A stretch of DNA of 16,939 nucleotides from an uncultured bacterium (GTDB taxonomy: Bacteria; CSSED10-310; CAZUFC01). The translations under genes were made by a program, and so were the position numbers. The stretch is taken from assembly GCA_964619725.1 (NCBI GenBank), contig CAZUFC010000162.1, forward strand, positions 1 through 16,939, in the 5' to 3' direction. Each line of letters opens with the position of its first letter. The stretch's first letter is position 1. The notes under the pieces were generated by a model. That model was not told the origin of the DNA. It saw only the letters and a program-made list of their open reading frames with translations, and did not search any database. Shown here in pieces: positions 2,590-16,405 of this stretch.

Positions 2590-5500
2590 TCAATCCCCCT
2601 CCCCCAAAAACCAGTCCAAATCATTTTTAATCTTGTCGGCTTTAGATTTACCAAGCAGCAGTCTTCCCAGTCTGTAGAACACTATTTTCATGAAATTTCT
2701 ATCAAAGAGTTGCGTATAGGTTATTTCAATCACTTCATAAGCTGAATTTCTCAGTTCTGTTCTGATTAAATTGTCTTTTTGTGCTGTTTCTGTGTTGCCG
2801 TGATAATGTTTGCTCATGCCGTCCAGGTAGATGCAAATTCCTTCCAGTCTTTCAGTCGGGTCATTGAAAAAGAAATCTGGTATTGTTCTGTCGTAGGGTT
2901 TTCCTATTTTTATGGGGTATTGAGTTTCGAAATTCTGGAAGCCTGCTTTTTGTAGCATGCATTTAAGGGTTTCTTCGGCGGCGTTTACGGTTATTTTTTC
3001 GTGGTCTTTTTCCGGGAACCTTGCTGGGATGTCGTTGACGAAATCTATTTCTGAGCCGAATTTTCTGATTGTTTCTGCGGCTTTTTTTCTGTCTAGGTAT
3101 CTGTGGCAGAATGCGTTTCTGAAGTTCATCAGGCAGTCTATACAGGCTTTATCGCATGCTGAGGGACAGTTTTCGGCCAGTTCGAGGGCTGAAGCGGTCA
3201 CTTCATCCCAACGGTCCAGCATTTGATTCAGCAAGCCTGAACCGCCGGGCATGGGATCGTAGAGCATAACATCCACGGCTTCGCTCCCGGTATGACCAAT
3301 CGCCAATAGTTGGAGGTCTTCGTTCTCCATTTCCAGGACCCTGGCGGCGCCTTGCCTGAGCGATTCCATTACGCTGTATGCGAAGCTTCTGTCGGGGCAA
3401 TCTTTCAGCGTTAACGCATCGGCTGTTATATCGGCGTAGAATCCTACGCTTTGCACCCGTTTTCCGCATCTTTTTTTGTGATCTTCACGGAATGAATTGA
3501 GTTCACTTTCTGAAGCCAGCGGAGAGCGGCTCTGTCCGCAACTCAGGCATAGGGGATAACCGATTTTACCGGTGTTCTGGACCAGTTTGACCGGCCCTAT
3601 GTTCACGAGTTTCAGATAGACGCCGGCACGATGATTGATGTTCATATCGCCCCATTGATATGACTTGCCTTCTCGGTGACGGTCCTGTTCGTATCCGTAA
3701 ACCGCTGTGCCGAGGTGAAAACGGAAAAGTTCTTCATCGGAGATGGTGGAAATATGCGGCAGGTCAACGTCGCACATGGGTACGGCGTTTATTTTCCTTA
3801 TGCCTATTTCTGACGATTGGGCGTTAGTTTCCGAACCTATTAGGTTTACGGCCTCATTTTTTATATCCACCTGAAATTTGACGGCTTCCTGAGGCGTCAG
3901 ATGATAATAACGCGGGGCATACCTGTGTCCGTTGGCGTAAACCAGGTTGCCGGGGATGTATTCTCTGAGCGCCAGCGCGGTTTCCCGCTTCAGTTCCCAT
4001 TCCCTGATCCTCGGATCGAAAGGCGGAGGCAGGTAATGGCAATTTACCGCGCCCTTGTCCAGTCCGTAACCCGGCAGGAATCCTTCTGCAGCCAGGACGT
4101 TGTAAGTGTATGTGTCGTCGTAACCGGCCGTTTCGCGACTCGAACGTTTTATTTTGCCTTTCATTTTTTTAACCAGCCTGTCGCATCGCCTGAAAAGCTC
4201 TTCTTCCGAAGGATCAAGCGTTCCTTTTTTTGACCTCGAGCGGCTCAATTTGTTGATTTGATCCATGGCCCATTCCAGGCGTTTATGCAACCTGTCGATA
4301 ACCTGCTTGAGCTGATCCGTTGCTTCTTTAATATACAATTGCAGACACTCTTTTTTAACGACAGCGGTATCGTCTCCGGGCCAGTTCTGAGAAAAAATGT
4401 CCGTCAGGTTATCCAGTATGATGTGACCGTATCTCTCCGTCAGTACCGAAATTTCCGAAACATTATAATCCCTATCAAGAATATGTCCCTGCTCATCAAA
4501 CAGGTAATCCCTGATAAAAACAGGAAAACAATGATTCATTACCGAACCGATGTAATGTTTTTCATTTTTTCCGATGTCTTTTCTTTTCAGAGAATTGAGA
4601 GTCGTAAGGATCGCGGCGTGCGTGTGTTTTCTTATCATGAATTCGTTTTTCAGGTTGAAACTGGGCGGATAGACTTTGCCTTCAAGCATTTTCAATGGAT
4701 CGACGTAGTAGGCGCGATCATGACTGGCCGGTCTTGAGTAGGTAAGGCACACGGACATCCGATGACGTCTTCCGGCACGGCCTGATCTTTGTTTATAATT
4801 GGCCGGCAGAGGCGGCACGTTGCGCATCAGCACAGCGTCCAGGGAGCCTATATCGACGCCCAATTCAAGCGTCGGCGTGCAAACCAGTGTATTGATTTTA
4901 TCCTCATCGCTTTTGAACAGGATTTCCCTCAGTTCACGATCTCGCTGCGGAACCTGTGCCGAGTGTTCTTCGGGTCTGATCATCGTGATCTGCTGGTCTA
5001 TGGTATTGAGATCGTAATTATCCGGGTCCTCTTTTTCATATTGCAGTTTTCCCTTGCATCGATAAGCCGTGCAGGCCAAGTTCGGCGTTCGTCTCAGATT
5101 CACGCGGCGGCATGTATCGCACCGGTAAAGCCCTTTATTGGCCTGTAGTATCAGTTTATCGGCATCGATCTGGCTTGCTCCTTGGGTTCCCGGGATAATT
5201 TTTTGCGTACGGCTTTTTATCCTTACGGGAACGACAAGTTGAAGATTTGTCGTTAATAATTTCCATAATTCATTCAAGAACGGCTCGACCTGATCTCCTG
5301 GAACCCCGAATTTATGCGCTGCATCCATGGCTGTAGTGATGCCTTTGTCGCTCATAAATTGACTTAATCGTTCTTTTTTATCGTCTGCTTTCCGTTTGAA
5401 TTTTATTCCCCTGGGTCCGCCTTTGTGAGGCAGAAGATATCCGTTCTGAATTTCACGGTCCCCGCTGCTCCAGTAACGAGTGAATATTTTATCCTCCTTG

Positions 5501-16100: not shown

Positions 16101-16405
16101 TTTAACGCGCTCCACCGGGCCCCGCGAACAAGCGCATCAAATTCGTCGCCGGACATACGCGGATCAGTGTGCACCAGCGGTAAAGCAGTCGGTTCGATCA
16201 GACATGCGGTATGCTCCAGTCTCCAGATAACGGAATCACCTGGAGGAACCTCGGAATCAAGATATTCGACATGAACCAAACGATATTTGCCCATTTCGTT
16301 GGAATCATATTCATCTACCGATGTTATTATGCCGCGGCGGTTACGTATTCTTACCGGCATACCTTCACGCGGTATCTGCCCTCCTGATGCGTTACCCCTC
16401 TTCAT
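13112..16405 (-). CDS. drmD: SNF2-family helicase/ATPase, DISARM DrmD-like
   Basis: 1097-aa ORF with all SNF2 motifs: [31 protein letters not shown] (Q motif/Walker A, DrmD-type context), LIVDEAHN (Walker B), LTATPHNG (III), LIIFTEY (IV), [14 protein letters not shown] (V), [22 protein letters not shown] (VI). C-terminus is coiled-coil-like. SD GAGGA lies 5 nt before the ATG. Directly upstream of a large adenine MTase, as drmD is in class I DISARM. Confidence 0.88.
   Translation of the reverse strand: [1097 protein letters not shown]

Follow-up and report, generated by a model that had tools for sequence, protein, structure and literature searches.

Is a three-gene locus that joins an SNF2-type helicase, a large adenine methyltransferase, and one fused helicase/nuclease protein a new kind of anti-phage system, or a further copy of a system that has already been described? 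The locus in question lies at positions 2590-16405 of contig CAZUFC010000162.1 (C162; assembly GCA_964619725.1) of an uncultured bacterium. The window analyzed here is that whole contig of 16,939 bases, which is part of a 9.17-Mb assembly of 344 contigs with a guanine-plus-cytosine (GC) content of 0.471. A first-pass annotation, made from the letters alone, had read the locus as a non-canonical, DISARM-related system bridging DISARM and Druantia, with the caveat that it may belong to the ARMADA class. With a probability of roughly 0.87, the locus is a complete and compact ARMADA Type I anti-phage operon with the gene order armA-armB-armC.

By definition, ARMADA combines a helicase of the BrxHII/RapA kind, a PglX-like methyltransferase, and a second helicase that resembles YprA and ends in a predicted active Vsr nuclease (Bell et al. 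2025, 10.1101/2025.09.15.676423, PMC12458937; a study of the Type II system in enterohemorrhagic Escherichia coli (EHEC) is cited below as the EHEC Type II study). The Type I features present in the window are an ArmA-type SNF2 protein, an adjoining PglX-like ArmB, and a YprA-like ArmC with a fused DUF1998 domain and a Vsr-type tail. They are encoded by three of four open reading frames (ORFs) that follow each other head to tail on the minus strand (Table 1; the fourth spans 352-2580 in the ORF list). The first-pass annotation had called the three large genes tightly coupled and had given their outer limits exactly. Overlaps of 4 bases couple them translationally, between armA and armB (ATGA, 13112-13115) and between armB and armC (GTGA, 8016-8019). 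Its description of the products as an SNF2 helicase, a large adenine methyltransferase, and a fused YprA-helicase/DUF1998/Vsr-like nuclease protein was borne out by the domain searches and the fold comparison given below. The observations that carry the assignment are the intact genes, the domain composition, the conserved catalytic and zinc residues, the clade membership, and the conserved synteny.

The first protein, ArmA, contains the Pfam domains SNF2-rel_dom and Helicase_C, carries a Walker A motif (GLGKT, residues 154-158, window 15932-15946) and a DEAH box (270-273), and has RapA as its closest solved structure (E 3e-31). It covers the NCBIfam model DISARM_DrmD end to end with 648.1 bits, above the equivalog cut-off of 610. 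In the PADLOC profiles, of which a 2023 copy without ARMADA models was used, it matched DrmD with 652 bits (E 4e-196) and BrxHI/HII with 259 bits. Since the second protein also matches the PADLOC profile DrmMI (457 bits, about half of the profile covered), one may ask whether the locus is a DISARM of class 1 in a non-canonical form, with one fused protein in place of DrmA, DrmB, and DrmC. The window indeed shares with DISARM class 1 a DrmD-like SNF2 protein, a DrmMI-like methyltransferase, and a YprA-family helicase with DUF1998. However, the DrmD- and DrmMI-type genes are shared with ARMADA by definition, and whereas DrmA and DrmB are separate proteins in DISARM, the window fuses helicase, DUF1998, and a Vsr nuclease into one protein of 1809 amino acids (aa) that matches DrmA with just 51 bits compared to 400-403 bits for DruE. 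No PLD family (DrmC, a nuclease that most DISARM class 1 systems have) is among the Pfam matches of the four window ORFs, in line with the first-pass annotation, the contig ends limiting the view. Furthermore, the tree of Bell et al. puts the helicases of DISARM on another major branch than those of ARMADA and Druantia, and the nearest relatives of the window ArmC are catalogued as ARMADA Type I, with the window protein grouping among them in a tree built without DrmA. A DISARM identity of the locus is exceedingly improbable, and we return to the ARMADA Type I reading with the second gene.

ArmB matches the Pfam families Eco57I (2e-19) and MmeI_Mtase and contains the S-adenosylmethionine motif DPAMGSG (residues 656-662, window 11130-11150) as well as the catalytic motif NPPW (977-980, window 10176-10187). 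Judging from these motifs, it is a gamma-type N6-adenine methyltransferase. The matches to NCBIfam PglX were weak, and a phmmer comparison of the whole protein with the PDB sequences returned nothing at E 0.01. Its best PADLOC matches are the REBASE-derived REase_MTase_IIG ('Type IIG restriction enzyme-methyltransferase') with 1502 bits and DrmMI with 457 bits.

Near its 3' end, armB contains a sharp low-GC block (Table 1) with a GC of 0.277 versus 0.48 in the remainder of the gene. In comparison with 23 relatives, this block is the least conserved stretch of the protein, with an identity of 0.20-0.39 versus 0.55-0.79 in the flanks. Composition and variability suggest that it is probably an exchangeable target-recognition module. 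The closest match found anywhere to ArmB residues 1340-1570 is 45% identical, and because the donor search returned nothing above this value, a recent import of the module would be deduced from composition alone. The equivalent segment is GC-poorer than the remainder of the gene in 24/24 genes, with the dip in the window being the deepest, and part of the dip may therefore be characteristic of the family instead of reflecting something recent. In the Type II island, armB is the variable gene across strains (EHEC Type II study). As a side observation, several ArmB-like proteins of approximately 2020-2100 aa (P0142, P0155, P0156, P0170-P0172, and others) also carry AAA_15/AAA_21/DUF3696 matches, and these are either OLD-like ATPase fusions or gene calls running into the slot between armB and armC that is described further below.

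For the third gene, armC, the ORF finder gives a start at a GTG (8019), and an ATG at 8010 is the likelier start because AGGAGG is found 8 bases upstream and the 1806 aa of the public gene call fit this position. The Pfam domains of ArmC are DEAD, Helicase_C, and MZB/DUF1998 (E 1e-10), and the helicase motifs comprise GSGKT (residues 115-119), DEAH (269-272), and QRSGRAGR (1077-1084). Solved relatives include Bacillus subtilis YprA (6znp, E 7e-28) and, as the best match, 9tu7 (E 2e-56), a 'DEAD/DEAH box helicase' of almost the same size (2108 aa) as E. coli DruE (2104 aa). As the top PADLOC matches of ArmC are DruE3 (403 bits) and DruE1 (400 bits), and as DruE, which belongs to the sister clade, is likewise a large YprA-like helicase and shares the layout up to DUF1998, the locus could also be taken for a Druantia-type system. 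Such a reading has to contend with the lack of ARMADA models in the 2023 profiles and with the neighbors of the helicase, which are ArmA and ArmB: none of the Druantia partner profiles (DruA-D, DruM/F/G, DruH) is among the matches listed (the best 25 per protein) for the other three window proteins, and ARMADA partners accompany the helicase in 56/80 related loci. Moreover, DruE proteins carry PLD domains (type III) or an inactivated Vsr (types I and II) according to Bell et al., whereas the Vsr-type nuclease of the window keeps its conserved D/D/H/D residues, and the tree described below separates the window protein from E. coli DruE. A Druantia assignment is hardly tenable.

The ARMADA Type I reading is supported further by the conserved sites of ArmC. 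Of 62 aligned relatives, 58-62 retain the helicase motifs (Walker A, DEAH, and motif VI), the cysteines of five clusters, and the Vsr residues, with the exceptions of T119 in Walker A (52/62) and the variable S1079 in motif VI (0/62). All eight cysteines of the zinc module between the two RecA domains (C518/521, C595/598, C609/612, and C637/640) are found in 62/62 relatives, as are a four-cysteine site at residues 967-988 and the DUF1998 cluster (C1618, C1622, C1626, and C1629); a further group at 1491-1541 also belongs to the conserved clusters. The window ArmC therefore belongs to the zinc-keeping majority. The CxxC pairs at 518-640 match the beta-barrel zinc module described for the ARMADA lineage (Bell et al. 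2025).

The C-terminal nuclease was harder to recognize. A single-sequence Pfam search with the tail of the window ArmC gave no match (DUF559 appeared, at E 0.02, in just two of the 26 relatives aligned), and a profile of 26 tail sequences found among the PDB sequences just a weak match to 3r3p (E 0.17). The last 179 residues were then aligned with 25 relatives and folded, giving a model with a mean pLDDT score of 79.5, mostly 86-96 in the core. Foldseek returned nothing from the PDB at E <=0.001, its weak top rows being PD-(D/E)xK enzymes. It was an exhaustive VIA-align fold comparison that settled the tail as Vsr-type, with 3hrl, 3r3p, and Vsr as the best structural relatives, so that the Vsr-type fold of the modeled C-terminus can be regarded as confirmed. 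Of the 62 relatives, 61-62 retain the residues proposed for catalysis (D1715, D1733, H1740, and D1749), and the nuclease site is probably active. Across the Vsr domain, the GC slides from approximately 0.56 at 3200 to approximately 0.37 at 2600, toward the low-GC downstream gene; this slope at the 3' end of armC (2590-3100) may be a recombination edge or plain local composition.

Membership of Type I was assessed through the relatives of the helicase. Species-representative genomes were scanned with the window protein, giving 229 relatives, of which 80 were kept; these are 46-51% identical to the window ArmC, nearly full length in most cases, and come from many phyla. In Table S1 of Bell et al., the contig accessions of four out of six relatives are listed as 'ARMADA Type I helicase' (two were not found there), and all five named organisms checked among the top protein matches have Type I entries when matched at species level. 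In BLASTP, the window proteins align only in pieces, with 21-35% identity, with ArmA, ArmB, and ArmC of the Type II system from E. coli O157:H7 Sakai. In a quick IQ-TREE search with 24 rows, which included one Type II ArmC and one DruE as the outgroup, neither DrmA nor the Type I representative of Bell et al., and used Shimodaira-Hasegawa-like approximate likelihood ratio test (SH-aLRT) support only, the window ArmC falls inside a 21-row clade (SH-aLRT 99) together with four Type I proteins listed in Table S1. Between this clade and the two E. coli proteins, Type II ArmC and DruE, lies a branch of 4.07.

Compared with the published description of Type I, the window has the same three genes and domains. 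The conserved CxxC pairs at C518-C640 and C967-C988 are such as the zinc modules would have, and the insert region of ArmC between RecA1 and RecA2 would be of the BrxA/ZBM/MarR type. The predicted OB-CON-DUF1998 arrangement and the Vsr-type nuclease are common to both, and the nuclease relatives 3hrl, 3r3p, and Vsr are of the same kind as those reported. No categorical difference was found; the window copy is divergent (at most 56% identity to any ArmC), compact, free of cargo, and without an S24 tail.

A PADLOC search (with DrmD, DrmMI, REase_MTase_IIG, and DruE as matches), a helicase phylogeny, and a survey of gene neighborhoods, as envisaged in the first-pass annotation, have thereby been carried out. 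The phylogeny places the window ArmC in the Type I clade, far from the references E. coli Type II ArmC and DruE, DrmA not being among its rows, and the survey shows conserved synteny. Its caveat on a possible ARMADA membership proved well founded in view of Table S1 and the tree. Of the proposal of an anti-phage system bridging DISARM and Druantia, the defense reading is the best supported, and the wording of a bridge comes near that of Bell et al. for ARMADA. The methylation-based discrimination of self from non-self that the annotation also proposed is presumptive. What does not hold is the idea that the system is non-canonical or new, because the same three-gene architecture has already been defined as ARMADA Type I, and by the annotation's own standard a characterized system with the same three genes removes the novelty.

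Within the 80 related loci, ArmB-like and/or ArmA-like genes are located beside the helicase in 56. Both are found upstream on the same strand in 25 loci and downstream in 2, ArmB-like genes occur alone in 27 (ArmA lying beyond the flank covered or being absent), and ArmA-like genes alone in 2. Neither partner was seen in 24 loci, 15 of which have no more than 3.1 kb of upstream DNA and 9 the full 10 kb; a record-wide search of five of these nine gave an ArmB-like gene 11.5-19 kb upstream in three (in one of them in pieces) and none in two. The helicase/methylase-first order prevails with 54 loci versus 2 and is distributed across many phyla. Bell et al. (2025) call the armA-armB-armC order 'reversed' and report it from many archaea and cyanobacteria, and the sampled loci show it to be spread more widely than this wording suggests.

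The junction between armB and armC deserves attention. Among the 52 loci that show both the end of ArmB and the start of ArmC, the genes are adjacent as in the window in 14, and 0.7-9.5 kb of inserted genes separate them in 38. Pfam was run on 60 of the 176 inserted ORFs, chosen mostly with at least 200 aa, and revealed AbiEii (7), AbiEi (1), DarT (2) with Macro, Fic (3), AAA_15/AAA_21 ATPases (7), some of them with HNH or UvrD-like helicases, Schlafen/AlbA_2 (2), GmrSD_N, Mrr_cat, a C5 methylase, and a transposase, with 17 ORFs giving no family. Judging from these matches, the junction is a cargo slot for other defense or toxin-antitoxin genes (AbiE, DarTG, Fic, OLD/Septu-like ATPases with HNH, Schlafen-like, GmrSD, and Mrr). 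In the window, this slot holds zero cargo genes.

A second variable feature is the end of ArmC. The C-terminus could be read in 70 relatives, of which 15 are short as in the window, 54 continue for approximately 170 residues more, and 1 is truncated where its contig stops. All six tail extensions that were tested match Pfam Peptidase_S24 (LexA/UmuD-like) above the cut-off. The main text of Bell et al. makes no mention of S24, LexA, AbiE, or DarT, and no row of their Table S2 names an S24 or LexA-like domain.

The same genome holds a fragment of a second ARMADA-like locus on contig C237 (L102:1-7676). Here, methyltransferase pieces lie in two frames (7089-7586 and 6094-7131), the cargo slot contains Septu PtuA (4721-5971) and PtuB (4056-4487), and the DruE/ArmC-like helicase ORF reaches just 1074 aa (391-3612) before a piece with a TGA. 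This locus is apparently broken or misassembled.

The broken appearance of the C237 locus, together with the long branch and mosaic composition of the window copy, brings up the question of whether the operon itself is decaying or silent, or else a restriction-modification-like set in which cutting would be done by a nuclease-like N-terminal region of ArmB, a notion to which the Type IIG profile match lends some weight. A decayed copy is unlikely because the three frames and the catalytic motifs are intact and conserved. As to cutting by ArmB, the Type IIG name of the profile is a database classification rather than a tested nuclease, and a profile of ArmB residues 14-520 built from 23 sequences found no solved nuclease by sequence (best match E 0.05, unrelated). 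Both versions of this alternative are highly improbable, and an intact ARMADA Type I operon is the reading that we keep.

Several points weigh against this reading. The terminal branch of the window ArmC is long (1.03 versus a median of 0.22), its composition is deviant, and even the closest ArmC among 5.8 billion proteins is only 56% identical. The host assignment is not certain, as the assembly is fragmented and contaminated (344 contigs; estimated completeness 90.9%, contamination 6.5%) and the window is an entire contig of 16.9 kb. A literature search found no phage test of ARMADA Type I, which is mentioned by Bell et al. alone, and no data on a methylation motif or self-protection for any ARMADA system were found in Bell et al. 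(2025) or in the EHEC Type II study. Type II, the form that was tested, requires the fourth gene ArmD, which is absent here. Finally, the S24-peptidase tail present in 54/70 relatives is missing, and the behavior of the window copy may differ if this tail is needed for regulation or activation.

Type II is the sole ARMADA type with experimental anti-phage proof in the literature cited here, and it serves as the precedent. The Type II loci of E. coli NCTC 12900, EDL933, and Sakai (ECs_5261-5264) begin with the three gene types of the window, arranged identically, followed by ArmD (RelE-GajB/UvrD). None of the four window proteins matches E. coli ArmD in BLASTP at E 1e-3, and the gene after armC matches no Pfam, PADLOC, or NCBIfam family. 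The Type II ArmC has 2113 aa versus 1809 aa here and lies in a separate clade, and the extra post-Vsr domains reported for it (Bell et al. 2025) were not seen in the window ArmC. Of 80 phages tested on E. coli, Type II gave protection against 13, and neither growth arrest nor membrane damage nor a metabolic shutdown accompanied it (Bell et al. 2025). Protection was abolished by the loss of any gene among the four (Bell et al. 2025; EHEC Type II study) and was also lost when the Walker motifs in ArmA and ArmC or the NPPW motif in ArmB were mutated (Bell et al. 2025). Strains with deleted armB kept growing and lost the defense (EHEC Type II study), which argues that ArmB is a working part of the defense and not merely a self-protecting partner. 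The sister helicase DruE is described in published abstracts as a helicase-nuclease that engages intermediates containing single-stranded DNA.

From this precedent and the domain composition, we infer a working model of Type I action that covers the biochemical steps, the activity of the window copy against phages, and what methylation does. ArmB would mark the DNA of the host at a motif that its variable recognition module near the C-terminus determines, and it would supply both sequence recognition and a required part of the defense complex. ArmA, being of the RapA/SNF2 type, may assist as a double-stranded DNA translocase on the invading DNA. ArmC, a predicted YprA-type translocase on single-stranded DNA with an OB-CON-DUF1998 canopy and zinc modules, would load onto single-stranded or end-containing invader DNA and translocate, and its Vsr-type nuclease would cut that DNA. 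The defense would be direct and would not act via host killing, in the manner demonstrated for Type II.

The coordinates of the features are collected in Table 1.

Table 1. Features of the window (C162, 16,939 bases) and examples from related loci (L, locus handle followed by positions).
Feature	Position	Strand	Basis or remark
Non-coding leader 5' of armA	16406..16939	-	runs to contig end; no ORF of at least 100 aa
armA, SNF2/RapA-like (BrxHII-, DrmD-like) helicase, 1097 aa	13112..16405	-	Pfam, NCBIfam, PADLOC, motifs
armB, PglX-like N6-adenine DNA methyltransferase, 1699 aa	8016..13115	-	Pfam, PADLOC, motifs
Low-GC hypervariable module of armB, residues ~1352-1558	8442..9062	-	GC and identity profile of relatives
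armC, DExH helicase related to YprA, zinc modules, DUF1998 with predicted OB and CON parts, C-terminal nuclease, 1809 aa	2590..8019	-	Pfam, PADLOC, PDB relatives
ArmC zinc-binding module between RecA1 and RecA2, four CxxC pairs	6100..6468	-	cysteine conservation
ArmC MrfA zinc-binding (DUF1998) domain, residues 1552-1630	3130..3366	-	Pfam PF09369
ArmC Vsr-type PD-(D/E)xK nuclease domain, residues ~1676-1790	2650..2994	-	fold comparison, conserved residues
Orphan membrane-protein gene, 731 aa, probably outside the system	352..2547	-	ORF, start site, GC ~0.30
Cargo-slot examples in related loci	L063:8236-9974, L086:3409-5009, L022:8827-9987
S24-tail examples in related loci	L010:15434-15943, L036:15419-15928, L083:15518-16111

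The leader upstream of armA probably holds the promoter of the operon. A minus-strand sigma-70-like match at 16852-16823 scored 9/12, being a consensus match only that says nothing on function, and the promoter and terminator scans of the window were uninformative (16 terminator-like sites versus 18.8 expected). tRNA genes and Rfam families were not found in the window.

Downstream of armC, on the same strand and 42 bases past its end, lies a gene with a GTG start at 2547 that is preceded by AAGGAG and matches a public call of 731 aa. The encoded protein has hydrophobic ends and a repeat-rich middle (beta-helix-like repeats), and it has no Pfam, PADLOC, or NCBIfam family and no paralogue in its own genome. 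Its only relatives are four distant proteins with 21-26% identity that carry PF13576 Pentapeptide_3, none of them with a known context, and the ESM Atlas gave only unnamed clusters, some with Pentapeptide_3. The position of the gene, its own Shine-Dalgarno sequence, and the lack of a minus-strand terminator-like site between it and armC would be compatible with co-transcription and with a lineage-specific fourth component acting with ArmABC. In this four-gene ARMADA variant, the protein might be a membrane-anchored beta-helix sensor or effector replacing ArmD or the S24 tail, both of which the window lacks. On the other hand, a homologue occurs in 0/80 related ARMADA loci, tail-less ArmC proteins are also found in 15/70 relatives without the membrane gene, and no defense family is matched. 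The GC of approximately 0.30 compared to 0.49 for armABC and 0.47 for the genome suggests a separate acquisition. The gene is probably a separately acquired neighbor outside of the system, and the partnership is very improbable; if true, it would be an undescribed four-gene ARMADA variant.

What, then, does the locus add to the ARMADA family? The system class, its domain layout, and the link between DISARM and Druantia have already been published in 2025, and close relatives of the helicase have been catalogued. The discovery value is therefore small, as the locus is one further copy of ARMADA Type I, real but ordinary. As a minimal and uninterrupted Type I operon with intact catalytic and zinc sites, no cargo, and no S24 tail, it would offer a clean construct for a first experiment on Type I. 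Moreover, the extremely low-GC, hypervariable module of ArmB supports the idea that ARMADA methyltransferases may change their target by module exchange.

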